A stretch of DNA of 64,000 bases from an uncultured Candidatus Saccharibacteria bacterium (GTDB lineage Bacteria; Patescibacteriota; Minisyncoccia; Phycocordibacterales; UBA6899): assembly GCA_964469335.1 (NCBI GenBank), contig CAYXYK010000003.1, positions 196,674-260,673 of the forward strand, given 5' to 3'. Position numbers and translations under genes: made by a program. Numbering within the stretch: position 1 is the first letter of the stretch; each line of letters opens with the position of its first letter. Shown one piece after another: positions 9,036 through 60,687 of the stretch. Below the pieces are notes generated by a model that saw only the letters and a list, made by a program, of their open reading frames with translations, had not been told where the DNA came from and ran no database searches.

Positions 9036-9039
9036 TGCT

Positions 9040-9738
9040 ATGGAAAAGATGAAGTTGGCAATAGTTGACGATCGAAAGGAAACAAGGAATGTCGTTGTTG
9101 ATGTTATTGCTAATGCACTCGACAATCTTGAGATGACTGGCAAATGGTCTGTTTTGGGGGTACCACCCCTGTCTACATTAAAGGAGTACCCAGAGTGGAT
9201 AATTAGGGAAAATGTAGGTATTTTAATCGTGGATGAAAGATTGGGAGAAGTTCCAAATGCCTCAGGCAAGATTGCGGATTACAAAGGGAGTGATTTGGTG
9301 GCATTGCTTCGAACACAGTATAAAGAAATGCCTATTTATGGTGTTACTGCGTATCATGCTGACGACTCCCTTCAAGAGCATTTCTCTCTTTTCGACGATG
9401 TTGTTGAAAGAAGTGACTTCGCAGCAAAAACAGTCCAGTATATTGGCAGATTCCTGAGAACATATCAAAATTTTTTTGAAGAAAACGAGAAAGAGCTCAC
9501 TGAGCTTTCAAAGATTTCAAAAAAAATTGCCATTGGTACTGCAAGCAAGTCTGAAAAAAATAGGGCAGAGGCGATACAGAGAAATCTCGAGATACCAGTT
9601 AGTACCATTTCTATTGCAAATAGAAAAGAATGGCTTGACGACTATGAAAAAATATTAAATATATTTACTGAAACGCAAAATAAAGCGAACAAAATTTTGG
9701 ACAAAAATAAAACAAAAATAAAAGATAAGAAAAAATGA
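9040..9738 (+). CDS. Receiver (REC) domain protein with a lysine-rich helical C-terminus
   Basis: KLAIVDDRKE (acidic pocket), ILIVDERLGE (candidate phospho-Asp) and YGVTAYH (conserved Thr). Start set at ATG 9040, 4 nt after the upstream stop; the ORF track gives 8971 as an alternative start. Confidence 0.55.
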   Translation: MEKMKLAIVDDRKETRNVVVDVIANALDNLEMTGKWSVLGVPPLSTLKEYPEWIIRENVGILIVDERLGEVPNASGKIADYKGSDLVALLRTQYKEMPIYGVTAYHADDSLQEHFSLFDDVVERSDFAAKTVQYIGRFLRTYQNFFEENEKELTELSKISKKIAIGTASKSEKNRAEAIQRNLEIPVSTISIANRKEWLDDYEKILNIFTETQNKANKILDKNKTKIKDKKK

Positions 9739-10385
9739 AATGGTCATTAATTCACAAAAAAGCAAACCCAGCACTTGAGAAGCATGGTTATCGCGATCAT
9801 CGAGTGAGGGAATTTTTAAGACAAGAAGGACTTTTGCGTTGTGCATATTGTGCTGTTCATGAGAATGCTGTCGGGGGAGTCCAGGCATTTCATATTGACC
9901 ACTACAAACCCAAGAAAAAGTTTCCTGCTTTAACGAATTCACTCTCCAATCTCTTTTATGTTTGCCCCATCTGCAATCGATTTAAGTCAGATGATTGGCC
10001 TGCAAATCCTCGCCCCACGTTTAGTAATAGCTCATATCCAAATCCGTCGAAGGTAGATTACAGCAAGCTGTTTGACGTTAGTTCTAGTGACTATGTGGTT
10101 AGTGGCCTGTTTGTGGCCTCAAAATATATAGTAGAAAAGCTATACCTTAATCGACCTCAGTTGATTTTGGAGCGGCGCTACTATTACCTAAACCAAAAAT
10201 TTGAATATCTGAGTTCGAATTATTTACCTATAATTAATGGTTTGAGTTCCATTGGAAATAAAGAGGCAATTGAATGTATAGTAAAACTTGCTGAAATCAG
10301 TGGTAAACTCAATGAACTACATTCTGCCTTAAAAACAATACCGTTATATGAAGTAGCAGATGTGACAAAGAGGAAAAAGAAATGA
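9735..10385 (+). CDS. HNH family endonuclease (candidate restriction endonuclease)
   Basis: CAYCAVHE ... HIDHYKPKKK ... YVCPICNRFK: a Cys4 zinc-finger HNH motif. The start overlaps the upstream stop (ATGA). Confidence 0.7.
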   Translation: MKWSLIHKKANPALEKHGYRDHRVREFLRQEGLLRCAYCAVHENAVGGVQAFHIDHYKPKKKFPALTNSLSNLFYVCPICNRFKSDDWPANPRPTFSNSSYPNPSKVDYSKLFDVSSSDYVVSGLFVASKYIVEKLYLNRPQLILERRYYYLNQKFEYLSSNYLPIINGLSSIGNKEAIECIVKLAEISGKLNELHSALKTIPLYEVADVTKRKKK

Positions 10386-12019
10386 ACTTAAAAAAGGAAA
10401 CAGGCTCATATTACACACCACATATCCTATCGGATTTCATGGTTTTTCACCTGTTTTCAGAATATAAATTTCCTAAAAATATAAATATTTTGGAGCCTAG
10501 CGCCGGAGACGGAGTATTCTTTGATTCGCTTTTTAATAATCAAGTTTTTAAAAATAAGTTTAAACTTCCCAAAAAAATAATCATTGATGCTGTTGAAATT
10601 GAAAAGGTAGCGATGCGTCATCTGGAAGTGAAAACGAGAGATTATATTTCAAAATCAAGTGAAATAAACTACACCCAGGAGGATTATTTGAAATACCAGC
10701 ATAAGAATAAAAAGAAGTTTGATTTGGTTTTGGGGAACCCACCTTACATAAAAAGTAGTCTTTTAAATAAAACTCAGATTGAGTTTTGTGAACAAATCCA
10801 TAAAACTGCCGGGCTTGATAATAAGAAAATTAAGAATATATGGACAAGTTTTTTGATTGCTGGCGTAGACTCTCTGAATAAAGACGGGGTACTCTGCTTC
10901 GTACTTCCTGCTGAGTTGTTGCAGGTCATATATGCTAAAGAACTAAGAAACTATCTACGAGATAATTTTCAGAGAATTGAGATTTTTACCTTCAACGAAC
11001 TTATTTTCCCAGATATTGATCAAGATGTTATCGTTCTTATTTGCGCAAAAAAGCAAAACGCGGGTGTTTCTTTCTATCACGTAGAAAAGCTTGATGATCT
11101 AAAAAAGCCAACATATGTTAAGGAAAATGATAACATCCATCGCCAAACTCTAGATAAATGGACTAATTACATTTTATTAGACAATGAACTTAAGTTTTTA
11201 GATTCTCTAAAAACTCGTTTCTCTCCAATCAAAGACTATTGTCGAGCGGAAGTTGGTATTGTTACTGCAGCAAATGATTATTTCATCGTTAATAAAGAAA
11301 CTATTGAGAAATATCACTTGCAAAATGTTGCAAAGCCAATTTTGCAGAAAAGTTCTTTGATGCCAGCAACAATTAACTTTACAAAACTTGACCAGAAGAG
11401 CATTTCTAAAAAAAACAAGCCTTCATACTTTCTTAGATTTGAAGATGTTAATAAAAAAGTATTTTCAAAAGAAATACAAGAGTATCTAAAGATTGGCGAA
11501 GGTCGAAAAATAAACGAACGATATAAATGCAAGCTTCGAAGCAATTGGTACCACGTACCCTCAGTTTGGATTTCTGAAGGGTTCTTTACGAAGCGCTCAA
11601 ATTTATTTCCTAGGATGGCAGTAAATGATGCTAAGTCATACTCTACTGATGCATTTTATAGAATTAAAATGAAGGAACAAAACAATGTTAAAGATCTTGT
11701 ATTTTCATTTTACAATACTTTGACGTTAATTTTTGCTGAGCTAGAGGGACGTTACTATGGTGGGGGAGTGCTCGAGCTAACTCCTAATGAGTATAAGAAT
11801 TTATCTATACCATATTGTAAAAATATAAAGGATTCTACATTTGCAAAGTTAGATAAAATGTTGAGATCTAAGACAGATATAAAAGAAGTTCTAAACTATA
11901 CAGACAAAATAATTTTAAAAGAGAATTACAAAATGTCTGATCAGGAAATTTCCAGGTTGTCTAAGATTTATTCAAAACTTGTTACTCGGAGATTAAAAAA
12001 TAGAAAACTTAGTTTTTAG
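10382..12019 (+). CDS. N6-adenine DNA methyltransferase, gamma class (Eco57I/TaqI-like), candidate Type II modification enzyme
   Basis: Motif I ILEPSAGDGVFF precedes motif IV LVLGNPPYIKS. Long C-terminal region is a likely target-recognition domain. Start overlaps the HNH stop (ATGA). Confidence 0.8.
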   Translation: MNLKKETGSYYTPHILSDFMVFHLFSEYKFPKNINILEPSAGDGVFFDSLFNNQVFKNKFKLPKKIIIDAVEIEKVAMRHLEVKTRDYISKSSEINYTQEDYLKYQHKNKKKFDLVLGNPPYIKSSLLNKTQIEFCEQIHKTAGLDNKKIKNIWTSFLIAGVDSLNKDGVLCFVLPAELLQVIYAKELRNYLRDNFQRIEIFTFNELIFPDIDQDVIVLICAKKQNAGVSFYHVEKLDDLKKPTYVKENDNIHRQTLDKWTNYILLDNELKFLDSLKTRFSPIKDYCRAEVGIVTAANDYFIVNKETIEKYHLQNVAKPILQKSSLMPATINFTKLDQKSISKKNKPSYFLRFEDVNKKVFSKEIQEYLKIGEGRKINERYKCKLRSNWYHVPSVWISEGFFTKRSNLFPRMAVNDAKSYSTDAFYRIKMKEQNNVKDLVFSFYNTLTLIFAELEGRYYGGGVLELTPNEYKNLSIPYCKNIKDSTFAKLDKMLRSKTDIKEVLNYTDKIILKENYKMSDQEISRLSKIYSKLVTRRLKNRKLSF

Positions 12020-12050
12020 TTAGATTCATGATAGATATCAAGTTATCAAA

Positions 12051-12620
12051 ATGAACATTGTTATATTGGGATGGGGCTCTCTATTGTGGGATAAAAATAT
12101 AAATTTTGATGAAACACATAAGGAATGGCTATTCGACGGCCCAAGTTTACCGTTAGAGTTTTCTCGTGTGTCAGAATCGAGAGGAGGAGCGCTAACGCTC
12201 GTAATTGATACTCAAAATGGAACCAAATGCCAAGTTGCGTATTCTTTGAGTATCAGGAAGACACTACGTGATGCCATAAATGACTTGACCAAAAGAGAGG
12301 GAACATCAACAAAACGAATAGGTTTTGTTGATGTGCTGTCTGGTAGTATTTCAGATGACGAGATTTCTCTTGGAATTAAATCTTGGGCGAAGGAACATGA
12401 TATTGAAGCAGTAGTATGGACAAATCTGCAGAGTAATTTTTGGGATAAAGTTGGAGAGAAATTTAGCGTCGAATCTGCGGCCACTTATCTTACTTCACTC
12501 GCAGAAGAGTCAAAAATAGAAGCTCTGAAATATATTAAATCGGCACCAGAATTTGTCCAAACACCACTGAGGAAGGAGTTCGAGATAAGGTTGGCCACAA
12601 ATGAGTTTGGAGAAAAGTGA
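12051..12620 (+). CDS. Hypothetical protein
   Basis: 189-aa ORF in the AT-rich island between the two R-M modules; no family recognised. Confidence 0.45.
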   Translation: MNIVILGWGSLLWDKNINFDETHKEWLFDGPSLPLEFSRVSESRGGALTLVIDTQNGTKCQVAYSLSIRKTLRDAINDLTKREGTSTKRIGFVDVLSGSISDDEISLGIKSWAKEHDIEAVVWTNLQSNFWDKVGEKFSVESAATYLTSLAEESKIEALKYIKSAPEFVQTPLRKEFEIRLATNEFGEK

Positions 12621-12659
12621 TGGGTTTGCAATCCCTAAATAGGGGAGTAGTCTGGAATT

Positions 12660-13067
12660 ATGACTGAGAAAAAAACGGACACATACGAGACGTTAGAATT
12701 CTGGCTAGGTGATGACTGGAAGAAAATTTCTGATGAACACAAGAGGATTTTAGCAGATAAGCTTGATTCACTTACAGATACAAATTTCGAAACGACAAAG
12801 GGTTTGTTTGAAAGAATACGCGACCGTCGTGAGATTCAGGGAGTGCTCATTTTGGGCGTAGTGCTCGGTATCCTAGGAAACTTAGTTGCTAATTATCTTG
12901 ATAGATATTTCCTCCGTTTTGGCTTTGCGTATTCGCTTGTGGTATCAGTAGGTTTTATTGTTGTGTATATTATTTTGAACCGAGCATTTGATAAAGGAAT
13001 CTCATCAATGGTGAGGAGCAATCCAACCCTACGTGCGATGATCGTCGAGAAAACCGAAAAGAAATAA
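12660..13067 (+). CDS. Hypothetical small membrane protein (2 predicted transmembrane helices)
   Basis: Hydrophobic segments VLILGVVLGILGNLVANYL and FAYSLVVSVGFIVVYIIL. Confidence 0.4.
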   Translation: MTEKKTDTYETLEFWLGDDWKKISDEHKRILADKLDSLTDTNFETTKGLFERIRDRREIQGVLILGVVLGILGNLVANYLDRYFLRFGFAYSLVVSVGFIVVYIILNRAFDKGISSMVRSNPTLRAMIVEKTEKK

Positions 13068-13199
13068 CAAAGGAAGTTCGGCACCAATTAATTGCAAAAA
13101 ATTTTTGGTAGATTTGTGCGAATTTCCCTCTAAATTCAACACATTCACTCAATCCCGAACAGACTAGCAACAAAGCCATCTTTGCCGTATTCTTATTGA

Positions 13200-15581
13200 A
13201 TGTCGCAGGAGGCATATTCTCGTGTTGTGATCGACCGAAAACTTCGTGAATCTGGTTGGGATATTGAGGATTCCCGTCAGGTTGTTTTTGAAGACCACGG
13301 AAACGCTGGTAGAGCTGATTATGTACTTAAGGATGGCTCTGGGAGGGCTATTGCACTCATTGAGGCTAAGAAACCAGAGATAGACCCCTACAGTGCAAAG
13401 AAACAGGCTTCTGATTACATAGAACTCCAGTATCCTCATGTGCGGTTTATTTATCTAGCTAACGACAAGCTAATTTACTTCTGGGATTTGGACGGAGGCG
13501 GAGACGCTCAAGTTGTCCCAGCGTTCTACTCCCAAGACGATTTGGTTCGTCGCCAGAGTGTTCGATCTCAAAATCTCGCTAAGAAACTAACAGAAGAGAC
13601 AATTCAAAAAGATTACTTCACCGATGTTGCTGACAGCGCAATCCTCCGTCCATACCAGCTCTCGGCATGGGAAACTATTGCTGATGGATATGATGCTGGG
13701 AAGCGTGCTTTCTTGCTGGAGATGGCTACGGGAACAGGAAAGACAATGCTCGCGTCTCTCATCATTTCTCGTTTCTTGCGCACAAACAACGCACAAAACG
13801 TTCTCTTTCTTGTAGACCGTAAATCACTCGCCATTCAAACCAAGAACACATTCGAGCGACTTCTTCGGGGAGTGTCGGCTGTCGGAACATACTGGGGCTC
13901 AAACAGGAAGAACCTCACGGGGTCAAACGTAGTGGTTGCCACAATTCAGTCTCTCATGCTCCACGGTGCACGTGATTTCTCGTCGGGATACTTCGACCTC
14001 ATCATCCACGACGAAGCACACCGAAGCATCTACTCCCCAGAGGCTCGTTCAGCAGTTGACCACTTCGTGGGAGTAACCAAGATTGGTCTGACTGCTACTC
14101 CTCGTGATTTCTTGAAGAATATTGACCTTGAACAGCTCAATGCAAAAGATCCTCGTAAACTAGAGCGCAGAGTACAGCGTGATACATATTCATATTTTGG
14201 TTGTGAACAAGGGGTGGCAACGTATCGCTACACGATACAAGACGGTGTGAGTGAGAAGTTTCTTGTTCCGCCAAAGTATCACAAGATGAAAACCTCGATT
14301 ACTCAACAGGCATTGTCTGACGAAGGTATAACGACTCTCGCTGACGTTGATCTCGAAGAGGGTGAAAGCATCAAAGTGAAAGACCTTGAAAAGAAGGTGC
14401 ATTTCCCTGAGCGGAATCGTCGCATGATGCAGGAATTTCTTGAACATGCAGTGCGCACACCAGACGGAGAGATCGGAAAGACACTTATCTTTGCGGTATC
14501 GCAAAATCACGCACTCGCACTAGAGAAAATACTGAATGAGCTGAAGCCCGAGTACGGAGGAAAGTTTGCAATGACCATCACTTCGCGAGTGCAGGGGGCT
14601 CATGATATTGCTAAGGATTTCTCGAAAGAGACAAGTAAGCTCCCACGAGTGGGAGTGACGGTAGAAATGCTCGCTACGGGCTTTGATTGCCCTGAGATAC
14701 TCAACATTGTTCTGGCTCGTCCAATATTTGATCCTGTGAGCTACCAGCAGATTAAAGGGCGCGGTACACGTCTGTGCCCAGAGATAAACAAAAAAGAATT
14801 TGTGGTGTTCGACTTCTGTGGTGTCGTTGAATATTTTGACGAGAAGTACGACTGGGAAGCACCAATCGTCCTGCCTCCCGTTGGTGGTGGAAATACAAAT
14901 GAGGGCGGAGCGGAGAGTGGAGGTGGAACAACATGCATAGGAATCGATGGAGAAGGAGGTGAGCCAGAAGAACGCATTTCACAAACACCAGATGTGGTGC
15001 TTTCTCGCGACATCATTACACTTCCTGAAGGTGATACGGTAGATAAAAACATGTATCGCGACGAGTGGACAAAGGCGGTGCAAGATTTCATGAGTAAGAG
15101 AGGCGAGTTGGTCGCATCCGCTCTTGAAGACGAAGATAAGGTAGAGGAGCTCATCGCAGAAATCAACGCCACACTACTCAATCAGCCCAAGCTTTACTTC
15201 AACGAGGAAAATCTCCAAATATCACACCGTATCGTCGCTGGCGTGCGAGAGTTCTTCCTTTCTGCTGTAGGAAAGCAATCGCTCCCAACCCGCGATGAAC
15301 AGCTCACTGGGTTCAAGCAGGCATTGGTCAACAAGTTTGCCCAATCAGATAAGCCAGAAGCCACCTTCAAGAGAGCCGTTATGGGGGAGTTCATTGCAGA
15401 TCAAGCTATTACAAACGACCACTTCCGAAAGTCTGTTATCGAGAAGCCAACACTCGACTTTTTGCGCTGGGACGAGTTTGAGCAAGCTTACTCGGTTACA
15501 GAGTGGCTCAATGTTTTCACAAAAGATGAGCTCACTGAATTGGTTTCGGATATTTCAAATGCACGCATTCTGAAGATTTAA
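13200..15581 (+). CDS. hsdR: Type I-like restriction enzyme R subunit (N-terminal PD-(D/E)xK nuclease plus SF2 DEAH helicase)
   Basis: N-terminal HsdR_N-like segment VVIDRKLRESGWDI...ADYVLKD...IALIEAKK. Helicase motif I LEMATGTGKT, motif II IIHDEAHRS, motif VI QIKGRGTR. At 793 aa it is short for a canonical HsdR. Confidence 0.75.
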   Translation: MSQEAYSRVVIDRKLRESGWDIEDSRQVVFEDHGNAGRADYVLKDGSGRAIALIEAKKPEIDPYSAKKQASDYIELQYPHVRFIYLANDKLIYFWDLDGGGDAQVVPAFYSQDDLVRRQSVRSQNLAKKLTEETIQKDYFTDVADSAILRPYQLSAWETIADGYDAGKRAFLLEMATGTGKTMLASLIISRFLRTNNAQNVLFLVDRKSLAIQTKNTFERLLRGVSAVGTYWGSNRKNLTGSNVVVATIQSLMLHGARDFSSGYFDLIIHDEAHRSIYSPEARSAVDHFVGVTKIGLTATPRDFLKNIDLEQLNAKDPRKLERRVQRDTYSYFGCEQGVATYRYTIQDGVSEKFLVPPKYHKMKTSITQQALSDEGITTLADVDLEEGESIKVKDLEKKVHFPERNRRMMQEFLEHAVRTPDGEIGKTLIFAVSQNHALALEKILNELKPEYGGKFAMTITSRVQGAHDIAKDFSKETSKLPRVGVTVEMLATGFDCPEILNIVLARPIFDPVSYQQIKGRGTRLCPEINKKEFVVFDFCGVVEYFDEKYDWEAPIVLPPVGGGNTNEGGAESGGGTTCIGIDGEGGEPEERISQTPDVVLSRDIITLPEGDTVDKNMYRDEWTKAVQDFMSKRGELVASALEDEDKVEELIAEINATLLNQPKLYFNEENLQISHRIVAGVREFFLSAVGKQSLPTRDEQLTGFKQALVNKFAQSDKPEATFKRAVMGEFIADQAITNDHFRKSVIEKPTLDFLRWDEFEQAYSVTEWLNVFTKDELTELVSDISNARILKI

Positions 15582-15582
15582 T

Positions 15583-17493
15583 ATGGACACCATCTCAACA
15601 TACAAAAGCAGAATAGACGGGCTGATGAATATTCTCTTTGGTGCAGGGGTTTCCAACCCTCAAACCATCATCGAGCAAATTAACTACTTGCTCTTTCTGC
15701 GCGCTCTCTCAGTCAAAGACGACGAGGCAGAGCTTCTTGGTATCGCCGATGAATCAGGCAAGATCTTCACGGGCAAGCTATCGAAGTACAAATGGTCAAA
15801 TCTCCTCGCACTGAACGCCGAGGATCTGTTCAAAATACTTGAGGAGTCTTATGGCGCGATTCAAAAAGAATCTGCGAATGCAACAGTAAAGCTCTTGTTC
15901 CGCAATGCCCATGTAAAGATTTTCGACAAGCCTACGCTCCGCAGGGTGCTTCACGAGATCGAGGAGTTTTCGAAGGAACTCGACACCATTGCCCACGAAG
16001 GCAACAAGGACGTGTTTGGGGATATGTATGAGTTCCTTCTCTCGAAGCTTTCCTCTGCGGGAACGAACGGGCAATTTCGCACCCCACGACACATAATCGA
16101 CTTCATGATCCGAGTACTCGACCCAAAGATTGGCGAGACGATACTTGATCCCGCTTGTGGCACGGCAGGTTTTCTTGTTGCCGCCTACCGCTATATTGCG
16201 GGCGAGTATACGAGCGACAAGATGAAGAAGGCAGGCAGTCCACGTGCAATGGACAAGCTCTCGTCCGAGGAAAAGAATTTTCTCTATAATCACATGTTCA
16301 CGGGCTTCGACAGTGACGAGGACATGATCAAGTTCGGAATGATGAACTTGCATTTGCACGGACTTACGAAATCTCATCTTGTTCGTCAAAATACGCTGAC
16401 TGATACAACTGGGTACAAGGCGAAGTTTGATGTCATTCTCGCCAACCCTCCTTTCAGTGGAAAGCTCGACGAGGAAAGCGTATCGGAAGACATTCGCATG
16501 GGGACAAAAGCGACTGAGCTTCTTTTCTTACGTTTTATGATAGACCACCTATCAAACAGAGGGAAAATGGCGGTGGTAGTGCCAGAAGGTGTGCTCTCAA
16601 GTTCTTCAAGGGCAAACACGAGGGTTCGTGAAATGTTGCTAGAAAATGGTCTATGGTGTGTCGTTTCACTTCCCAAAGGTATTTTTAATCCATATGCAGG
16701 TGTTAAAACCAACATTATATTTCTTGATAAGTTATTTGCCAGTAAGTCGAAAAATATTCTGTTTGTAACACTAGCAAATGATGGCTTTGAGCTTACTGCA
16801 CAGAGACGAGCTACGCAGAAAAATGATTTACCTGAAATATTAGAATTGTTATCAAGATGGAAGATGGACGAAAACACAGAAAGTACTCTCATAAAATCGG
16901 TCGAAAAATCAAAAATTATCGACAATGCCGACCACACTCTCTTGAAAGAGCAGTATGAAATTAACAGTAGGCACACAAAGGCAAAATACCCAATGATAAA
17001 GTTGGGAGAGCTTTGTGAAATTAAGACTGGAAAGAAGGATGTAAATGAAGGAAACCCAGATGGGGAATATCCTTTTTTTACTTGCGCCAAAGAGCCAACT
17101 CGAAGCGATAGTTATTCTTTCGACACAGAAGCCCTGCTTATTGCTGGCAACGGTGATGTTGGTGCTGTAAAGTATTATCTCGGGAAGTTTGAGGCATATC
17201 AAAGAACATATGTTTTGGTGAATTTTGAAAAAAGTGTTTTACCAATGTTCATTTATCACTATCTTGACGCGACGCTTAAACCCATTGTATCTGCACAAAA
17301 ATTAGGTAATACGATGCCATATATAAAAATGGGAATGCTATCAAATTTTGAGATATCTCTTCCGCCCCTAGAAATCCAGCAACAAATTGTCTCTGAAATT
17401 GAGAGTCATCAGCTTGCGGTAGATGAAGCCTACGAAGAAGCCGAAAGACAAAAGAGGAAAATCAAAGAGAGGATCGACAAGATTTGGGAGTAA
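15583..17493 (+). CDS. hsdM: Type I restriction-modification methyltransferase HsdM with a fused C-terminal single target-recognition domain (HsdS-like)
   Basis: N-terminal HsdM_N-like region. SAM motif ILDPACGTAGFL. Catalytic ILANPPFSG. C-terminal ~180 aa resemble an HsdS TRD plus conserved helix (LGELCEIKTGKKD ... LPPLEIQQQIVSEIE). Confidence 0.8.
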   Translation: MDTISTYKSRIDGLMNILFGAGVSNPQTIIEQINYLLFLRALSVKDDEAELLGIADESGKIFTGKLSKYKWSNLLALNAEDLFKILEESYGAIQKESANATVKLLFRNAHVKIFDKPTLRRVLHEIEEFSKELDTIAHEGNKDVFGDMYEFLLSKLSSAGTNGQFRTPRHIIDFMIRVLDPKIGETILDPACGTAGFLVAAYRYIAGEYTSDKMKKAGSPRAMDKLSSEEKNFLYNHMFTGFDSDEDMIKFGMMNLHLHGLTKSHLVRQNTLTDTTGYKAKFDVILANPPFSGKLDEESVSEDIRMGTKATELLFLRFMIDHLSNRGKMAVVVPEGVLSSSSRANTRVREMLLENGLWCVVSLPKGIFNPYAGVKTNIIFLDKLFASKSKNILFVTLANDGFELTAQRRATQKNDLPEILELLSRWKMDENTESTLIKSVEKSKIIDNADHTLLKEQYEINSRHTKAKYPMIKLGELCEIKTGKKDVNEGNPDGEYPFFTCAKEPTRSDSYSFDTEALLIAGNGDVGAVKYYLGKFEAYQRTYVLVNFEKSVLPMFIYHYLDATLKPIVSAQKLGNTMPYIKMGMLSNFEISLPPLEIQQQIVSEIESHQLAVDEAYEEAERQKRKIKERIDKIWE

Positions 17494-51077: not shown

Positions 51078-51503
51078 TCACTTTCGTTCAAAATGATCTG
51101 TCTCGTGATAAGTATCGTAATCAGCGGTGAGTTCTTCTCCTGGGAGGATGTCTCTCGTGGCGATGAATGTCTCGCCATGGTCGAGTGTGACCATATTGGG
51201 CTCGGATGAATGATTGAGATAGTAGTTCTTCGTGAGCGCATCGATCCCGTAGTTCGGAACGAAATATATCCCGTCTTGGAGTGCACAAAAATCACGAACC
51301 AAGTCCTTTGCCTCCTTCGGAGCATCAAAGGCATCAAGTTCGGCCTTTGGGATCCTGAGTACGTCACCTTCCGGATCAGCATTCTTGAGTGGGTCGGTAC
51401 CTTTAGGTATGGTGCGGATGGCGATGACTCCGACACCGTGTTTCGTGACTCCGAGGCGAGTATAGACTTGGTTGAGTGCGGAGAGGAATGCTTTTTTGTT
51501 CAT
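51078..51503 (-). CDS. SET-domain protein (putative protein lysine methyltransferase)
   Basis: NYYLNHSSEPNMV (NHSxxPN motif) and PGEELTADYDTY (ELxxDY motif). Start MNKKAFL at 51503. Confidence 0.65.
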   Translation of the reverse strand: MNKKAFLSALNQVYTRLGVTKHGVGVIAIRTIPKGTDPLKNADPEGDVLRIPKAELDAFDAPKEAKDLVRDFCALQDGIYFVPNYGIDALTKNYYLNHSSEPNMVTLDHGETFIATRDILPGEELTADYDTYHETDHFERK

Positions 51504-51732
51504 ACTTTGCAGTATAACTTTTGCTAAAGGGGAATGAACAGTCTTTTTGACAAAACCCCATAGTTGTATTTTGTTTATTTTGGCTCTTGCATAGATATTT
51601 GCCGAGGAGTAGAGTAGACACATCGGAAGCCTAGCTTCTGATAAATAAAAAGACCACAACATTCGTTGCGGTCTTTTTCCATTTCATAACCAGAAGCCAT
51701 ATTAGGCGCAGTGAGTATTGTATAATCTCATA

Positions 51733-52803: not shown

Positions 52804-52899
52804 AAGTGCCATTTGGGAATAAAAAAGCCGCCGGACAGAGCCGGCGGCGGAGCAAGAGGAAGAAATAGGGGACACAGGAGTATTCGCATGCGCCCCATG

Positions 52900-53403
52900 C
52901 TACGCTGCAGCCTCGAGTTGTTCGAGCTCGAAGACCCCGCTCGGGACGACTGACGCGATCGCGTGCTTGTAGACCATCTGGGTCCTGCCCATGCCATGAA
53001 GAAAGACGGTGAACTTGTCGATGCCGACGATCACTCCGTCGAGCCTGACCCGGCTCGCGAGGTAGATGCCGACTGGCATCTTTCTTTCGCGCAGCGCACG
53101 GAGATATGACTCCTGGAGCGGTTCGCCGTCCTTCGCCGGTTGCTCCTCGGAGGAGTCGTCGAGACTGACCGAGAACCGGAATGAGGGCGGAGGTACGACG
53201 GTCATCGTCGTGCCTTTGTAGGCGAGTTCGACTGGCGGGTCGTCCAGGTCGGTTCGACGGTAGAGAATCACATGCGGATCGAACGACTCGATAACGCATG
53301 GGATACGTGCACCGTCGATACGGTTCATCGTGACGGGAATGCGTTCACGTCGCAAGCGGTTCAGGAACTCGTCCTGCGGGTGCGGAAAGGCTTTCTTGTT
53401 CAT
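52900..53403 (-). CDS. hfq: RNA chaperone Hfq with two tandem Sm/Hfq domains
   Basis: Domain 1 QDEFLNRLRRERIPVTMNRIDGARIPCVIESFDPHVILY. Domain 2 PVGIYLASRVRLDGVIVGIDKFTVFLHGMGRTQMVYKHAIASVVP, which includes the YKHAI Sm2 motif. Confidence 0.7.
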   Translation of the reverse strand: MNKKAFPHPQDEFLNRLRRERIPVTMNRIDGARIPCVIESFDPHVILYRRTDLDDPPVELAYKGTTMTVVPPPSFRFSVSLDDSSEEQPAKDGEPLQESYLRALRERKMPVGIYLASRVRLDGVIVGIDKFTVFLHGMGRTQMVYKHAIASVVPSGVFELEQLEAAA

Positions 53404-53499
53404 TGCAAACTCCTGTGTGTCAAAAGAGCATCAACGAGCAGAATCGCCCGTTCTGAGCAATCTACCACTATTACCCAATCTGTCAATTTTTGCGCAACG

Positions 53500-53530
53500 A
53501 CGAAAAAGCCGGCACATTGTCCGGCTTTTT
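53500..53530. terminator. Bidirectional intrinsic terminator
   Basis: aaaaagccggcacattgtccggctttttttgg. Confidence 0.55.
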
Positions 53531-53541
53531 TTGGTTGAGAC

Positions 53542-53733
53542 TCAGGTCTGGCATTCATCTGGATTCCTGCTGTCGGACCGTAGTGTTTTGCATGGCGGCT
53601 TTCGCTCTTGTTCTGTTTCTCCCATGTGGAGTGCTTTCACTTTTCCTTCACCTCGACAGGTCGGGCATTCATCACCACGCTCGACCTTCGCGCCGTTGCA
53701 TCTTGGACAGACCATTCGTCGTAATATTCGCAT
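53542..53733 (-). CDS. Small zinc-ribbon protein, hypothetical
   Basis: CPRCNGAKVERGDECPTCRGEG. Confidence 0.35.
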   Translation of the reverse strand: MRILRRMVCPRCNGAKVERGDECPTCRGEGKVKALHMGETEQERKPPCKTLRSDSRNPDECQT

Positions 53734-53839: not shown

Positions 53840-54307
53840 TCATAAAGGTTTGCGCATATGTATCAGCGTTTCAGGATACACGCGAATGAAAAGCATGATC
53901 GCATCTCGGAGATTCTTTTCCGTAAGGTTCCGGTCCGCAAGGACGCGAGTGATACGTTCCGCAAACTGTCGCGGGCGTAGCGGGTGCTCATCATACCCGC
54001 GGATTGCGATGATTGCCTGGACATCTGGAAGTTTCAGGAACTCCTCTTCCGTGAGGGGACTCGTCCCCGTCAGATCTTTCTTTTCCGAGATCCTTTGTGG
54101 AAAGAGTTTTTCTTTGAGACCGCTCATTCCTCTTTTTCGCTCCTTTGACGGAACGGATAGTGCCTTGACTCGCTCAAGGTCTCGCTCCTCTCGCTGACGT
54201 TCTTTTTCTGCGAGCAATACTTTGATGAGTTTCCCGACATGGATCTCGATGGGATGTTTCTTTGCGCGTACCGATTTAACGGAGTGCGCTGCAGTGTCGT
54301 GGTGCAT
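53840..54307 (-). CDS. Hypothetical protein
   Basis: ORF only. Confidence 0.4.
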   Translation of the reverse strand: MHHDTAAHSVKSVRAKKHPIEIHVGKLIKVLLAEKERQREERDLERVKALSVPSKERKRGMSGLKEKLFPQRISEKKDLTGTSPLTEEEFLKLPDVQAIIAIRGYDEHPLRPRQFAERITRVLADRNLTEKNLRDAIMLFIRVYPETLIHMRKPL

Positions 54308-54490: not shown

Positions 54491-54994
54491 TCAACGCGGA
54501 CGGAAGCTTTCGGGTAGCGGGCGCTTCGGATTGACGAAGTGCCGGTACACACCGACGACTTCACGGGTGAAGGGATCCGTGAGCTGCGATGCACCGTAGC
54601 GTTGCGCGTTCTCGAGCGCATTGCCGACAGTGCCGAAACGTACGTTCGGGTAGGTTGTTCTCCTCTTCATGTGCCGCACGGTTTTGTAGATCGCTTCAGC
54701 AACGAGATTCGGATTGTCTGCGAGGAACTCGCGGTGGCGCCTTTTCTGCACCGACCTACGGTGGATGTAGACCATCGCCGTGATGAGCATCGCTACGACG
54801 AGGATCAGACAGAGCACACTGATCGCCGTCGCGATGGCTGGGTCGGTCACCGTGGTGTTCTTGGTGATCGTTGTCGCGAGCACGTCTACGATCTCGATCA
54901 GTCCGTAGATTACCGCGCCAGCGATGGTCACGAAGACCAACGCAAGAACGAAAAGCAGGTCGCCGTTGACCTTGGGATGTGTTTGCGTGTTCAT
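54491..54994 (-). CDS. Hypothetical membrane protein (2 TM)
   Basis: Hydrophobic segments; no family recognised. Confidence 0.45.
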   Translation of the reverse strand: MNTQTHPKVNGDLLFVLALVFVTIAGAVIYGLIEIVDVLATTITKNTTVTDPAIATAISVLCLILVVAMLITAMVYIHRRSVQKRRHREFLADNPNLVAEAIYKTVRHMKRRTTYPNVRFGTVGNALENAQRYGASQLTDPFTREVVGVYRHFVNPKRPLPESFRPR

Positions 54995-55157: not shown

Positions 55158-56522
55158 ATGTCGGAAACCATAGTAGCTCAAAAACCCATCATCCACGACG
55201 TCGGCCCGACCGAGGAACTTGTCCGCAGCATGTCGAAGTCGAAGAATGAACCGGAGTGGATGCTCGAACTACGCCTGAAGGCGTTCGAGCTGTGGCGTCG
55301 CAGCCCGATGCCCGCGTGGGGGCCGGATCTCTCGGGACTCGACCTGCCGAACTTGATCTACTACGCCGACCCGAACGTGAAAGAGACAGATAACTGGAAC
55401 GAACTCCCAAAAGAGATCTCTGATACCTTTGAGAAGCTCGGCATCCCACAGGCGGAGCGCGAGTATCTCGGCGGAGTCGGAGCGCAATACGACTCAGGTG
55501 TCGTCTATCACAGCATCCAGAAGAAACTTGCTGATCAGGGCGTGATCTTTGAGAACATGGATGTCGCGTTACAGAAGTATCCCGAGCTGGTGAAAGAACA
55601 TTTCATGACCAAGTGCATTCCGATGACTGATCATAAATTCACTATGCTCCATGGCGCGGTGTGGAGTGGTGGCACGTTCATCTATGTCCCGAAGAATGTG
55701 AAGGTCGCTCTGCCGCTACAGGCGTATTTCCGTATGAGCGTCGCGCGCTCGGCACAGTTCGAGCACACGCTCATCATTGCTGACGAGGGCTCCGAGATCA
55801 CCTACATTGAGGGCTGTTCCGCGCCGCAGTACACCGAATCGTCACTCCATGCCGGTGGTGTGGAGCTGTGGGTCAAGAAAGGAGCGCGAGTGAAATACAT
55901 CAGTGTCGAGAACTGGTCAAAGAACACCTACAATTTGAATACAAAGAAGGCACTCGTGTTCGAGAACGGTCTTGTCGAATGGGTGAATGGCAACATGGGC
56001 TCTCATACCACCATGCTCTATCCGTCATCCGTACTCCTCGAACGTGGAGCTCGTTCAGAGTCCTTGGGCATTGTGATGGCGAGTGAGGGGCAGGTACAGG
56101 ACACCGGATCGAAAGCGATACACCTTGCTCCTGACACTGTCTCGGTCATCCGCTCGAAATCTATCTCCAAGGGAGGGGGAGTATCGAATTATCGTGGGCA
56201 AGTGAAGATCAGCAAGCGCGCGACCAATGCCGAGTCGACGGTGATGTGTGACGCACTTATTCTCGACGACAAATCAGTCTCGAACACCTACCCGTCGATC
56301 AAGAACGAAGGTAGCAAAGTCAGCCTCTCGCACGAGGCACGAGTAGGGAAGATCGGTGACGATGAGATCTTCTACCTCCGTTCACGCGGATACTCCGAAG
56401 CAGATGCGCTTCGACTCATCGTCGGAGGATTCATGGAGCCGATCGTGAAAGCGCTTCCGCTTGAATATGCGGTAGAATTGAATAAGTTAATAGAATTAGA
56501 GATGGAAGGAAGTGTCGGATAA
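55158..56522 (+). CDS. sufB: Fe-S cluster assembly protein SufB
   Basis: SufB/SufD beta-helix profile (NTYNLNTKKALVFENGLVEWVNGNMGS, NYRGQVKISK). Confidence 0.9.
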   Translation: MSETIVAQKPIIHDVGPTEELVRSMSKSKNEPEWMLELRLKAFELWRRSPMPAWGPDLSGLDLPNLIYYADPNVKETDNWNELPKEISDTFEKLGIPQAEREYLGGVGAQYDSGVVYHSIQKKLADQGVIFENMDVALQKYPELVKEHFMTKCIPMTDHKFTMLHGAVWSGGTFIYVPKNVKVALPLQAYFRMSVARSAQFEHTLIIADEGSEITYIEGCSAPQYTESSLHAGGVELWVKKGARVKYISVENWSKNTYNLNTKKALVFENGLVEWVNGNMGSHTTMLYPSSVLLERGARSESLGIVMASEGQVQDTGSKAIHLAPDTVSVIRSKSISKGGGVSNYRGQVKISKRATNAESTVMCDALILDDKSVSNTYPSIKNEGSKVSLSHEARVGKIGDDEIFYLRSRGYSEADALRLIVGGFMEPIVKALPLEYAVELNKLIELEMEGSVG

Positions 56523-57702
56523 CAAGAGTAAAATCGAGGAATTATCGAAACGACTCGTCGAACCCGAGTGGCTTTTTGATTGGCGTAAAGCTGCGTTTGA
56601 AAAAATCACGACACTTCCGCGTGATGAGAAGTATGGCATTGCCATCTCGGCACTCGAACTTAAAGCAGAACCGGAACTTTCGCAGTATCCCGACTACGAA
56701 GTGAATGCGTCGAAAGGACTTGAGTTGTACACCTGGAAGGAAGCGATGGCACAGGAAGAGATCGCTCCTATTCTCGAGAGACTACTCGGAAGCCCGCTAC
56801 TCCCGGCTCCCGTTTCGAAAGAACAGGCGCTCGGGCGCGCATTCTTCCAGTCCGGACTCGTCGTATACGTGCAGCCACATGTCGATGACAAGGGTGAGTA
56901 TCAGAAAGAGACGCTCGATCTCACTACCACGCTTTCCTTGGGTGCCGCATCGGACATCGTCATTGTCATAGCGAAAGAAGGTGCTCAGCTTAGTATGCAG
57001 AGCATTCTCAAAGGCGGTGAAGACTCGAGCATCTTTCTTCGTACCTTCATCACACTTATTGAAGGAGAGGCGAAAGTGAATCTGGTTTCTCGCACAGATA
57101 ATGTGCGGGGTTTTGTCAGTCTTGAACACCGCGCACTTGTCTCCTCATATTCAGCAATCGATATTTACGAGGATCCGAGCTCGTCTTCGCTTTTGCGTTC
57201 CGATATCGAGACACTCCTCCTTGGACAGGAGGCATCATCGACACTCACTCATGTCATGACCGCAGAGCATGCATCGCAATTCGATGTCCACGCACATACG
57301 GTCCATCACGCATCTGACACCACTTCAAATATTTACGCACTTGGAACCGGAGGCGGCACTTCGCGCACCGTCTATCGTGCTGCGGTCAATATCAAGCCTG
57401 GGATCAAGGCTGTAAAAGGCGCCCAAGAGGGAAAGTTCCTTGTCCTCTCTGATACTGCCGAGGTGGATGCTATCCCTATCCTCGATATCGCTTCGAACGA
57501 AGTCGCATCCACTCACAAGCTCTCGGTGAGCCATATCCGAGACACTGATCTGTTCTATGCCAAGTCTCGCGGCCTCTCGGATGACGACGCACGTTCACTT
57601 ATCCTCGAGGGATTCTTCGGATCACTCTTTGAGAAACTCGGGAAGCAGGATTTAATGGAGAAGCTGACAGAGCGGCTGACGCGACTCGTCACCGCGAAAT
57701 AA
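56512..57702 (+). CDS. sufD: Fe-S cluster assembly protein SufD
   Basis: Paralog of SufB immediately downstream with overlapping start. Confidence 0.85.
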   Translation: MSDNKSKIEELSKRLVEPEWLFDWRKAAFEKITTLPRDEKYGIAISALELKAEPELSQYPDYEVNASKGLELYTWKEAMAQEEIAPILERLLGSPLLPAPVSKEQALGRAFFQSGLVVYVQPHVDDKGEYQKETLDLTTTLSLGAASDIVIVIAKEGAQLSMQSILKGGEDSSIFLRTFITLIEGEAKVNLVSRTDNVRGFVSLEHRALVSSYSAIDIYEDPSSSSLLRSDIETLLLGQEASSTLTHVMTAEHASQFDVHAHTVHHASDTTSNIYALGTGGGTSRTVYRAAVNIKPGIKAVKGAQEGKFLVLSDTAEVDAIPILDIASNEVASTHKLSVSHIRDTDLFYAKSRGLSDDDARSLILEGFFGSLFEKLGKQDLMEKLTERLTRLVTAK

Positions 57703-57703
57703 T

Positions 57704-58918
57704 ATGACTTGCAACCCAAACACCCTAAAAAAGGATTTTCCTCAACTGACGGATAGTGCCTATCACTATCTTGATTCTGCTTCGTCGTCGTTGGTGCCGT
57801 CGGCAGTGCTCGATGTCGTGAACGATTTCTACATACACGACAAGGCGAACGTACATCGTGGCGAATATGCCGCTGCAGTCCGCGCGACAGAACGCTACGA
57901 GGCTGCACGCAGAGATGTTGCGGATTTCATCGGCGGACACCCCGACGAAGTGATCTTCTCCGGCGGAGCGACCGAAGCTTCAAACATGCTTATCCGCTCA
58001 CTCGACGAGACTCTTGAGTTCGCGCCAGGGGACGAGATTGTCACCTCGGTGATGGAGCACCATGCGTCGATCCTCCCGCTCCAGCAATTCGCCAAAAGGA
58101 AGCAGTTGGTACTCAAGCATATCCCGATCAATGAGGATCTTACCCTCGACTATAATGAAGCAGCCAAGCTCATCACCGAGAAGACCAAACTTCTCTCAGT
58201 CATGCTTGCTTCGAACGTCATCGGTACCGTCAACGACCTTGCCCGTCTCTCAGATCTCGCACACGCAAAAGGCGCGATCGTTATTTCTGATGCGACTGCA
58301 GCAGTAGGTCATATTCCTGTCGATGTTCGTACGCTCGGTGTCGACATGCTGTTCTTCTCGGGGCACAAACTGCTTGCCCCCACCGGTGTCGGAGTGTTGT
58401 GGATGAAACATGACTTCGCAAAGAAATTGAACCCGAGTGAATTCGGTGGGCACATGCTCGATGAAGCAACGCTGACTTCAGCGACATGGGCAGAGGCCCC
58501 GACGAAGTTCGAGGCAGGAACGAAGGATATCGGCGGAGTGATCGGACTCGGCGAAGCAGTGCGATATGTCAAAAAAATCGGTGTGGAGAGCATCCACGCG
58601 CACACAAGTGTGTTGGTCACCCGTGCGATCGAGAAACTCTCACAGATTGATGGTGTCCATATCTATGTGCAGCGTGATCTGACACATAATGTCGGGATGG
58701 TGAGCTTTACCGCCGACTGGGCGCATCCGCATGACATCGGAGAGATCGTCGCACGAGACAAGACGGCGATCCGCGCCGGGCATCACTGCGCGATGCCGCT
58801 CCATTGTGAGCTCAAGATCAAAGGGACGGCGCGTGCAAGTTTCCATCTTTATAACACCGAAGAAGATGTTGACGCTCTGGTGTCCGCAGTCAAGAAAGCA
58901 TATAAGGTATTCAACTGA
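57704..58918 (+). CDS. sufS: Cysteine desulfurase SufS (class V aminotransferase)
   Basis: FFSGHKLLAPTGVGVLW (PLP Lys) and RAGHHCAMPL (catalytic Cys loop). Confidence 0.9.
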   Translation: MTCNPNTLKKDFPQLTDSAYHYLDSASSSLVPSAVLDVVNDFYIHDKANVHRGEYAAAVRATERYEAARRDVADFIGGHPDEVIFSGGATEASNMLIRSLDETLEFAPGDEIVTSVMEHHASILPLQQFAKRKQLVLKHIPINEDLTLDYNEAAKLITEKTKLLSVMLASNVIGTVNDLARLSDLAHAKGAIVISDATAAVGHIPVDVRTLGVDMLFFSGHKLLAPTGVGVLWMKHDFAKKLNPSEFGGHMLDEATLTSATWAEAPTKFEAGTKDIGGVIGLGEAVRYVKKIGVESIHAHTSVLVTRAIEKLSQIDGVHIYVQRDLTHNVGMVSFTADWAHPHDIGEIVARDKTAIRAGHHCAMPLHCELKIKGTARASFHLYNTEEDVDALVSAVKKAYKVFN

Positions 58919-58919
58919 T

Positions 58920-59285
58920 ATGGATCCACTCTATCAGGAAAACATCCTCGACCATTACAAACACCCGCACAATCGGATGTTCATGGAGGGCGCTGACGTC
59001 GCACAGAAAGGCCACAATGCGAGTTGCGGTGACGATCTTACACTCTATTTGAAATGGAATGGGGAAGAGCTGAGCGGTATCTCATTCGAAGGATTCGGCT
59101 GTGCGATCTCCCAGTCAGGTGCCTCGATGCTTACCGATAAGGTGAAGGGAATGAGCCGTGAAGCTATACGAGCACTCGGAGCAGACGACATGAATGAACT
59201 CTACGGGGTTGAGATCGGACCGCAGCGCGAGAAGTGTGCGATGCTCGCTATGAACACGCTCAAAGAAGCGATTGAAGTAAGATAG
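58920..59285 (+). CDS. sufU: Fe-S cluster scaffold SufU (IscU-like)
   Basis: NASCGDDLTLYL ... FGCAISQSGASMLT ... KCAMLAMNTLKEA. Confidence 0.8.
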   Translation: MDPLYQENILDHYKHPHNRMFMEGADVAQKGHNASCGDDLTLYLKWNGEELSGISFEGFGCAISQSGASMLTDKVKGMSREAIRALGADDMNELYGVEIGPQREKCAMLAMNTLKEAIEVR

Positions 59286-59312
59286 AAAAAACGGCACCCG
59301 AGGGTGCCGCTT
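59285..59312 (-). terminator. Terminator hairpin (minus-strand sense)
   Basis: aaaaaacggcacccgagggtgccg. Confidence 0.45.
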
Positions 59313-59339
59313 CGAACAGGGTTGAGCGCAGGGTACCTT

Positions 59340-59660
59340 TCACCGCACGTACTTGGCGGGCCAAACGGCCACGCCGGGCGTGCTTGCCGCAGCGACAGCG
59401 ATGAGGCAGTGAAGGAATGAAGCGAAGGCCAAGACGATGGCGATCCGCGCTTCGTACCCGGACGCATACACCGAAGGAGAGACGTAGTTGAAGTAGAGGA
59501 TGAACAGCATCACCACGAAGCCGATGATCCCGGAGGCGAGAAGCCAGCGCGGGATGAAGATGGACCCGCCGTCATCACGAACGAATGCGAACTGCAATTG
59601 ATGTCTCCTGTGAATGTGGAAAGAACTGGACGCGGGGGATATAGTATGATACAAAAGCAT
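59340..59660 (-). CDS. Small membrane protein, hypothetical (antisense insertion within the suf locus)
   Basis: 2 TM-like segments; has a downstream terminator; start uncertain. Confidence 0.35.
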   Translation of the reverse strand: MLLYHTISPASSSFHIHRRHQLQFAFVRDDGGSIFIPRWLLASGIIGFVVMLFILYFNYVSPSVYASGYEARIAIVLAFASFLHCLIAVAAASTPGVAVWPAKYVR

Positions 59661-59662
59661 AC

Positions 59663-60391
59663 ATGTCAATTCTCGAATTGAACGACATTTCCGTAGTCGC
59701 TGGCGATAAGACCCTTCTTGAAGGGGTCTCTCTTTCTGTGGAAAGCGGCAAGGTCCACGTATTGATGGGACCGAACGGTTCTGGGAAATCCTCGCTCCTC
59801 AACGCTGTGATGGGCCACCCGAAGTACACGATCACGACCGGCGCGGTAGTCCTCGACGGTGAAGATATTACTTTGCTTGCTCCTGAAAAGAAGGCGAAAG
59901 CGGGACTCTTTCTGTCGCTGCAGCACCTTCCTGAGATCGGAGGAGTCACTCTCACTAACTTCATGTATCGTGCATACAAGGAGACCAAAGGTACGAACAT
60001 GAGTGCGCTCGAATTCTATAAGCTGGGGGAGAAGCAGGCACATGATGCGGGTATCGATGCGAGCTTCCTTAAGAAAAGCGTCAACAGCGGACTCTCAGGC
60101 GGCGAGAAGAAACAGTCAGAGCTCCTCCAACTCTTAGTGCTCGAAGCGAAGATCGCGCTTCTCGATGAGATCGACTCGGGTGTCGACATCGATGCGATGA
60201 AGAAGGTGTACGCGAGTATCAATCTCCTCAAGGAGAAGGGAATCGGGTTCTTGCTCGTCTCTCATCACCCCAATGTGCTGGAGTATGTCACTCCGGACAC
60301 AGTCTCGGTCATGCGTAGTGGGAAACTTGTTGCATCAGGAGGGAAGGAACTTGCAGAACGGATCATGAAAGAAGGATTCGAAAAGATCTAA
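59663..60391 (+). CDS. sufC: Fe-S cluster assembly ATPase SufC
   Basis: Walker A GPNGSGKSSL; ABC signature LSGGEKKQSE; Walker B LLDEIDSG. Confidence 0.9.
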   Translation: MSILELNDISVVAGDKTLLEGVSLSVESGKVHVLMGPNGSGKSSLLNAVMGHPKYTITTGAVVLDGEDITLLAPEKKAKAGLFLSLQHLPEIGGVTLTNFMYRAYKETKGTNMSALEFYKLGEKQAHDAGIDASFLKKSVNSGLSGGEKKQSELLQLLVLEAKIALLDEIDSGVDIDAMKKVYASINLLKEKGIGFLLVSHHPNVLEYVTPDTVSVMRSGKLVASGGKELAERIMKEGFEKI

Positions 60392-60393
60392 AC

Positions 60394-60687
60394 ATGGAAA
60401 CACTCACTAAAGAGCACATCATCGAGTCACTCAAGACGGTCAAGGATCCCGAACTCCATATGGATATCCATACACTCGGGCTGATCTACGGCATCGAAAC
60501 AGGAGAAGACGGTATCGACATTCTCATGACACTGACCACCCCATTCTGTCCTTACGGTGATGAGATAATCCAGAACGTCGAGAAGACGCTCGGGAAGCGA
60601 TTCGGCGTCGAGGTCCGCGTCGACATCACTTTTGAGCCGGAGTGGGAGCCCTCGGAAGAATTGAAGATCGAGTTAGGTCTTCCGTAA
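60394..60687 (+). CDS. sufT: SufT/DUF59 (MIP18 family) Fe-S assembly protein
   Basis: VKDPELHMDIHTLGLIY ... LTTPFCPYGD. Confidence 0.7.
   Translation: METLTKEHIIESLKTVKDPELHMDIHTLGLIYGIETGEDGIDILMTLTTPFCPYGDEIIQNVEKTLGKRFGVEVRVDITFEPEWEPSEELKIELGLP

Follow-up and report, generated by a model that had tools for sequence, protein, structure and literature searches.

An Hfq with two unequal Sm domains in one chain from a Patescibacteria genome

The window analysed here, i.e. the whole stretch of 64,000 nucleotides (nt) taken from contig CAYXYK010000003.1, carries on its minus strand an hfq gene (52900..53403) whose product of 167 amino acids (aa) combines two Sm domains, domain 1 (D1) and domain 2 (D2), in a single chain. 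Hfq is the textbook example of a homo-hexameric RNA chaperone. The explanation we favour, and consider probable with a good deal of room for doubt, is that this gene of a candidate phyla radiation (CPR) bacterium stems from an old internal duplication which left two Sm domains fused, that three chains would form one ring in which D1 and D2 alternate, and that the surfaces for RNA binding would be divided between the two domains. A ring with two different Sm domains hard-wired into it would show for which of the three RNA-binding surfaces threefold symmetry is enough and which ones depend on sixfold symmetry, and engineered heteromeric Hfq is difficult to use for this question. The protein is small, its sequence is clear and its expression should be straightforward; nature has thus set up an experiment on the symmetry of the Hfq ring in which stoichiometry and the use of the RNA faces are open to direct tests.

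The open reading frame (ORF) begins with ATG, and its translation matches exactly the 167-aa minus-strand protein quoted in the initial annotation. Its identification as a tandem-Sm hfq coding sequence of 167 aa and a stop codon draws on the ORF list, on the sequence itself and on a match of 106.1 bits, in two stretches, to the Pfam Hfq family (PF17209, gathering cutoff 27 bits). A Shine-Dalgarno sequence, AGGAG, was read 6 nt 5′ of the ATG (53410..53414, minus strand) and is kept in all orthologous loci. Neither a second hfq copy nor a tRNA gene was found within the 64-kb window. The general rarity of two-domain architectures is the only argument for regarding the ORF as an artefact (frameshift, mis-assembly or two adjacent hfq genes joined by chimeric read-through), and we give this explanation next to no weight. 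The exact protein was found on the NCBI contig and in several Logan assemblies, and variants of 99%, 90% and 89% identity occur in further Logan, JGI and ENA assemblies, none of them interrupted. Four data sources thus contribute more than 10 independent assemblies with an uninterrupted, identical or near-identical ORF, which can therefore not be the product of a frameshift or an assembly fusion; this recurrence effectively refutes the artefact. Furthermore, orthologues at 28-35% identity (protein clusters P0008, P0016, P0010 and P0184, at loci L091, L092, L093 and L115, respectively) share the fused architecture and the length, and synonymous changes prevail over the hfq ORF taken whole. The tandem hfq is a genuine gene under selection.

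Two Hfq domains per chain had been proposed from the sequence alone, together with a hidden Markov model search as a check, and that search returned two Hfq matches rather than a single scoring domain. Each half exceeds the PF17209 cutoff by itself, the N half (residues 1-83) with 40.0 bits (E 2.9e-10) and the C half (residues 84-167) with 69.8 bits (E 1.5e-19). The NCBIfam Hfq models match both halves as well. The whole protein scores 101.2 bits with the Hfq equivalog model TIGR02383 (cutoff 61.7) and 113.5 bits with NF001602 (cutoff 95); when the halves are scored alone with TIGR02383, D2 passes (67.0 bits) and D1 falls short (37.5 bits). D2 matches solved Hfq chains with E about 1e-13 at 43-47% identity. 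NCBIfam also holds a model for tandem Hfq, NF010691 (PRK14091), which has 176 positions and a cutoff of 270 bits. It matches the protein of the window with 97.7 bits in two separate stretches, and it matches four tandem proteins of the alphaproteobacterial type (P0006, P0014, P0021 and P0013) with 157-241 bits in a single stretch across both domains. By these profile scores the protein is a member of the Hfq family that lies outside the NF010691 tandem family.

D1 (residues 9-72; 53188..53379, on the minus strand like all parts of the gene) is a divergent Sm domain that scores 40 bits alone and is modelled from alpha1 to beta5 with a predicted local distance difference test (pLDDT) value of 95-97, while D2 (residues 96-155; 52939..53118) is canonical-like by its conserved residues. 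A linker of 23 residues, PSFRFSVSLDDSSEEQPAKDGEP (residues 73-95; 53119..53187), joins them and stands out by its pLDDT, its charge and its weak constraint; with a net charge of −4 and many prolines it agrees with the acidic, proline-rich linker of the earlier description. The chain ends in a short acidic tail, GVFELEQLEAAA (52903..52938), which has a net charge of −3 and was delimited by the fold model and by charge. D1 and D2 align with 24-26% identity, and D1 has a 4-residue insertion in its beta3-beta4 loop. When residues are mapped to E. coli Hfq numbering, D1 retains Q8, the full rim motif R16-R17-E18-R19 (RRER), R47, D40, Y55 and K56, and carries the changes Y25N, G34C, Q41P, F42H, Q52E and H57G. 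D2 retains Q8, Y25, G34, D40, F42 and Q52, with K at position 41 and R at position 31; the weakened rim of this domain reads R16-E17-R18-K19, position 47 is H, and R stands in place of G29. The Sm2 motif YKHAI, with His57 at the pore, is present in D2 at residues 145-149 and has become YKGTT in D1, and both the motif in the second domain and its divergence in the first had been recognised correctly at the outset. The proximal U-binding pore of Hfq is formed by Q8, F42, K56 and H57, the distal A-rich site by Y25, I30 and K31, and the rim patch needed for annealing by R16, R17 and R19. Compared with these surfaces, the retained residues indicate that D1 and D2 keep complementary subsets of them.

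The pattern of substitution speaks to whether D1 is still in use. Nei-Gojobori counts against the 90%-identical variant gave 15 synonymous and 5 non-synonymous changes in D1, corresponding to a ratio of non-synonymous to synonymous rates (dN/dS) of 0.09, and 15 synonymous and 2 non-synonymous changes in D2 (dN/dS 0.03). The linker, with 5 synonymous and 7 non-synonymous changes (dN/dS 0.37), is the least constrained part of the protein, and the C-terminal tail shows no amino-acid change relative to loci L085 or L087. Selection therefore maintains both domains, and D1 is no decaying copy. It has been suggested in the initial annotation that domain 1 underwent subfunctionalisation, and this idea is supported here in a sharper form: D1, at its low dN/dS, keeps the rim residues R16, R17 and R19 and has lost Y25, G34, F42 and H57, and D2 keeps precisely these four and has a weakened rim. 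One may alternatively hold that D1 lost its function and is a structural spacer which completes the ring, with D2 doing all RNA binding. The absence of Y25, F42 and H57 from D1, its Sm2 sequence YKGTT, its Pfam Hfq score of 40 bits next to 70 bits for D2, and the free variation of the degenerate positions among orthologues would all fit such a spacer. We nevertheless find it unlikely, since D1 holds the complete RRER rim with R47, Q8 and K56, is under strong purifying selection (5 non-synonymous versus 15 synonymous changes), and has a counterpart in P0010, where the rim is likewise confined to the domain that is devoid of H57.

The fold and the probable assembly were approached by structure prediction. 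An AlphaFold2 monomer, with 20 aligned two-domain Hfq proteins as input, reached a mean pLDDT of 86.4 and a predicted template modelling score (pTM) of 0.82, and shows a helix followed by five strands (H-E-E-E-E-E) twice over, with pLDDT above 90 in both cores and a disordered stretch within the linker (residues 83-92, pLDDT below 50). Foldseek aligned one domain of about 66 residues of this model with solved Hfq chains at a target-normalised TM-score of 0.9-0.96 and a root mean square deviation of about 1 Å. Two domains of 65 residues that tumbled independently would not reach a monomer pTM as high as 0.82, and the orientation of D1 to D2 is therefore predicted to be fixed. Three copies of the protein concatenated head to tail, an artificial chain for which the first copy alone had aligned homologues, yielded six confident Sm domains in the best model (mean pLDDT 85.4, pTM 0.83 over 501 residues) and pLDDT 76-83 in the other four. 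Such a rigid six-domain body is what a closed six-domain ring would give; it fits the three-chain assembly and is supportive, not decisive. The "trimer of pseudo-dimers" put forward in the initial annotation is thus consistent with both pTM values and with a 23-residue linker that is long enough to extend to a neighbouring subunit, but it is not proven by them.

A different assembly would have six chains, in which D1 and D2 each form a homo-hexameric ring and the two rings are stacked or tethered to a total of 12 Sm domains, or the protein may form some other oligomer. The linker, flexible at residues 83-92, could let the domains separate, stacking of Hfq and Sm rings is known from crystals, and the alternating ring is a reading of model scores. 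We still rate this arrangement as quite unlikely: the monomer pTM points to fixed packing of D1 on D2 rather than to independent domains, and the covalent trimer is predicted as one rigid six-domain body. Furthermore, G34 and H57, which in canonical rings serve homotypic packing and the pore, are lost from D1, and a ring made only of D1 is therefore less likely.

In the favoured alternating ring of three chains, predicted from these models, D2 would supply the canonical residues of the proximal pore (Q8, K41, F42, K56 and H57) together with Y25 of the distal face, and D1 would supply the intact arginine patch of the rim (R16, R17, R19 and R47). The ring would then be threefold symmetric: its rim would bear three strong patches, and the pore would have three His57 only. 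The acidic tip of the C-terminal region is reported to autoregulate E. coli Hfq (PMC5606850), and by analogy the basic rim of the tandem protein may be a site at which its acidic linker and acidic C-terminal tail compete with RNA. The trimeric ring, the division of labour, the RNA-chaperone activity and such autoregulation are what we infer for the protein, and RNA binding and chaperoning in particular are read from the conservation of binding residues only.

The age of the fusion is evident from its relatives. In a HMMER search over 1.84 billion cluster representatives only the protein's own cluster scored below E 1e-30, and about 25 other clusters among the best 150 matched in two stretches and are other two-domain Hfq proteins of 124-243 aa. 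Related clusters in the narrower sense number only about five, all of them syntenic beside the suf operon. P0008, P0016, P0184 and P0010 are all two-domain and syntenic, and the fused architecture is therefore old within the lineage. A neighbour-joining tree of single domains, which lacks bootstrap support and is weakly supported given domains of only about 60 residues, suggests several independent duplications of Hfq: in an alphaproteobacterial-type group the D1s fall together and the D2s fall together, in a second group (P0007, P0022, P0025 and P0032) D1 and D2 of each protein are sisters, and a third, small group holds the protein of the window. At 26% identity its D1 and D2 are the most unequal pair among the tandem proteins compared. 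Between sub-lineages Hfq is the fastest-diverging gene of its block: the window and L115, for instance, share 30% identity in Hfq, 86-97% in SufB, SufC, SufD, SufS and SufT and 43-58% in the other neighbours. Within a sub-lineage it is strongly constrained, with a dN/dS of 0.03-0.09 in that of the window.

The order of the domains appears to differ between these sister lineages. The rim-type domain, recognised by loss of G34, by Q52E and by a longer beta3-beta4 loop, comes first in the protein of the window and in P0010 and second in P0008, P0184 and P0016. The best neighbour-joining tree and several characters group the domains by type and not by position (bootstrap 18%), and collinear D1 or D2 clades have a bootstrap of at most 0.5%; the linker and tail motifs look collinear. 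A swap of domain order between sister lineages is possible, as are convergence and long-branch effects. If a swap occurred, fusions of the order A-B and B-A would both have been tolerated, since both would build the same alternating ring.

A consensus scan located a sigma-70-type promoter of hfq (53459..53486, minus strand) with TTGACA, a 16-nt spacer and TG-n-TAGATT as an extended −10 element; it has 10 of 12 consensus matches in addition to the TG, and in the seven aligned loci, without exception, the −35 hexamer is invariant and the −10 element conserved. A terminator scan placed a strong intrinsic terminator of 8 G-C pairs followed by TTTTTT behind the gene (52827..52848, minus strand). 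As judged from these signals hfq is a transcription unit of its own, with its own promoter, leader and terminator. The locus alignment further revealed a nearly invariant leader element of 27 nt, GCTCAGAACGGGCGATTCTGCTCGTTG (53432..53458, minus strand), directly 3′ of the −10 box and between it and the Shine-Dalgarno sequence. It is identical at 26 of 27 positions in L091 and at all 27 in L115, though the Hfq proteins of these loci are only about 30% identical, and it occurs once in the window. The 27 nt could pair into a hairpin of 8 bp with a U-rich tract behind it, and they include the inverted repeat CAGAA-N7-TTCTG; the hfq leader has no Rfam match at the gathering threshold or at E values up to 1. 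The 27-nt element probably mediates regulation, and could be either an RNA element, e.g. an autoregulatory site for Hfq, or a DNA operator.

Several observations weigh against the proposed ring and its division of labour and keep our confidence in them limited. The pattern of residue losses varies among the orthologues, and P0008 and P0184 are devoid of H57 in both domains; the pattern is not conserved, and a fixed division of labour is therefore no rule for the whole family. The PDB copy searched by Foldseek contains no tandem Hfq structure, and no solved chain in it covers more than one domain. The concatenated chain is artificial, its alignment depth lies on one copy, and three of its five models are lower in quality (pLDDT 76-78); the geometry of the ring is read from pTM values alone, which are supportive, not decisive. 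We know of no RNA-binding or oligomer data for a tandem Hfq of any kind. As to the leader, RNAalifold finds the hairpin without compensatory changes, so that covariation is absent, and the z-score of its single-sequence fold, −1.05, is not significant; a leader structure is therefore unsupported, and the conservation of its sequence is what stands.

The neighbourhood of the gene is conserved in the order suf operon (sufB-D-S-U-C-T), membrane protein of about 167 aa, protein of about 155 aa, zinc-ribbon ORF, tandem hfq and a convergent gene for a protein of about 356 aa. The zinc-ribbon ORF (53542..53733, minus strand), defined by cross-locus translations, encodes 63 aa with two CxxCxGxG knuckles and lies directly upstream of hfq in what had been taken for a 440-nt gap; most assemblies do not annotate it. 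All loci of the window's sub-lineage carry it, as do L091 and L092; a related ORF occupies the same place in L115, and L093, the locus of P0010, has none. The encoded protein shares 54-60% identity with its counterparts in L091 and L092 and 71-76% with those of closer loci; every Cys and Gly residue is invariant, and the changes cluster in the tail. A putative terminator hairpin, GCCGG-N8-CCGGC followed by TTTTT, was read from the sequence behind the zinc-ribbon ORF (53503..53525, minus strand) and is kept in L091 and L093 with different stem sequences.

The size and motifs of the zinc-ribbon protein recall anti-TRAP and the DnaJ zinc knuckle, which share a length of about 50-60 aa and two CxxCxGxG motifs with it. 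It differs from both in scoring far below the family cutoffs: Pfam DnaJ_CXXCXGXG gives 21.8 bits (gathering score 32.7), and the best NCBIfam match, anti-TRAP RtpA, gives 21.5 bits (E 1.9e-4, cutoff 65) in which only the CxxCxGxG knuckles match. Metagenome matches to the zinc-ribbon alignment came from 20 loci at 32-60% identity, none with hfq within 4 kb, and were set aside as unrelated CxxCxGxG proteins. The small zinc protein anti-TRAP acts by blocking an RNA-binding protein of ring shape, and an anti-TRAP-like role of the 63-aa protein toward Hfq is, by this analogy, a lead only. One may speculate further that the tandem Hfq builds a single-chain "heteromeric" ring from a rim domain and a pore and distal domain, that their order was swapped between sister lineages, and that the ring is controlled by the zinc-ribbon protein, by the 27-nt leader or by both. 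This combination is a long shot in our estimation; if true, it would amount to a compact module of post-transcriptional control in an episymbiont with a minimal genome.

Further upstream, a conserved syntenic protein of 155 aa (53840..54307, minus strand) is called as a gene in related loci at 50-88% identity and is not assigned a function by family, there being no Pfam or NCBIfam match. Between it and the suf operon lies a conserved syntenic, putative membrane protein of 167 aa (54491..54994, minus strand), which is 43-86% identical across loci and whose Pfam and NCBIfam matches are all below threshold. The suf cluster itself (55158-60687, plus strand) consists of sufB, sufD, sufS and sufU (NifU_N), a small ORF on the opposite strand, sufC and an FeS_assembly_P gene (SufT-like). 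Its conservation is extreme: SufB is 97-98% identical even between sub-lineages that differ considerably elsewhere. A SET-domain protein (51078-51662, minus strand; Pfam SET 39.8 bits), encoded two genes downstream of hfq, is conserved in related loci; SET domains are uncommon in bacteria.

At the other end of the window, an island (6837-17493, plus strand) is set apart by a GC content of 0.33-0.47, compared with about 0.52 elsewhere, and by genes of defence type. These encode a protein with two HATPase_c domains, an HNH nuclease, an Eco57I-like methyltransferase, a ResIII/SNF2 helicase and a fused HsdM-HsdS methylase, and the island is probably a restriction-modification and defence island that was acquired horizontally.

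The host was placed by its primary sigma factor, RpoD. The best named relative of this protein is from "Candidatus Lloydbacteria bacterium RIFCSPLOWO2_01_FULL_5..." (90% identity over 79% of the query), followed by "Patescibacteria group bacterium" (89%) and "Candidatus Pacebacteria" (75%), and the NCBI taxonomy places Lloydbacteria in the Parcubacteria group of Patescibacteria. The host is therefore a CPR bacterium similar to Candidatus Lloydbacteria. The sigma factor gene (3615-4988, plus strand) encodes a Lys/Ala-rich N-terminal tail resembling histone H1, and some relatives of the protein have a precomputed match to Pfam PF07382. An Hfq-type regulator is hereby described in a genome of the Parcubacteria (CPR), organisms in which, to our knowledge, almost nothing is known about post-transcriptional control, and it speaks for regulation of the Hfq type in this group. 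Our literature search found no publication on Hfq in Patescibacteria or the CPR.

In relation to canonical single-domain Hfq of E. coli, Pseudomonas and Caulobacter, the tandem protein has the same Sm fold, and its D2 has Q8, Y25, G34, D40, F42 and Y55-K56-H57-A58-I59. It differs from canonical Hfq in that each chain has two domains and lacks a long disordered C-terminal domain, that the miaA-hfq-hflX neighbourhood, which is present at its closest single-domain relative (P0004), is absent, and that the three RNA-binding surfaces appear to be spread over two non-identical domains. This predicted ring of diverged, non-equivalent Sm units also has parallels outside the Hfq family, in the eukaryotic Sm/Lsm hetero-heptamers and the archaeal Sm paralogues, whose rings of diverged units arose through duplication and subfunctionalisation (PMC3710371). 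Sm/Lsm proteins come from separate genes and form seven-membered rings, whereas the units of the tandem Hfq are covalently fused and a six-membered ring is expected.

The closest precedent is the tandem Hfq of Alphaproteobacteria. The first note of a duplicated Hfq is reportedly that of Sun, Zhulin and Wartell in Nucleic Acids Research (NAR) in 2002. Two Sm-like domains have been described in ZMO0347 of Zymomonas mobilis and in six other Sphingomonadales, where it was also asked whether three proteins make up the ring (PMC2877685). The likeness to the protein of the window extends to two fused Sm domains, a length of about 150-180 aa, a linker of 15-25 residues and the same hypothesis of three chains per hexamer (PMC2877685). 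The alphaproteobacterial type has YKH(A/S)I in both domains and 39-61% identity between D1 and D2, whereas the protein of the window has YKGTT in D1 and 26% identity. Its D1 and D2 group with neither the D1 nor the D2 clade of the alphaproteobacterial proteins, as far as neighbour-joining with weak support indicates, and the host phylum and the gene neighbourhood differ as well. The initial annotation is fair in calling reports of tandem Hfq sporadic, yet the architecture and the three-chain ring were already published (PMC2877685) and the type has a model of its own in NF010691, and the novelty is therefore lower than that annotation implied. The present protein extends the concept of a fused Hfq and does not found one, as two-domain Hfq and the idea of a trimer are in print and several independent lineages carry such proteins. 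What is new is the occurrence in a separate CPR lineage and the marked split of RNA-binding surfaces between the domains. From its sequence features, we would class the Hfq of the window as an independent variant of the known fused Hfq with strongly asymmetric domains.

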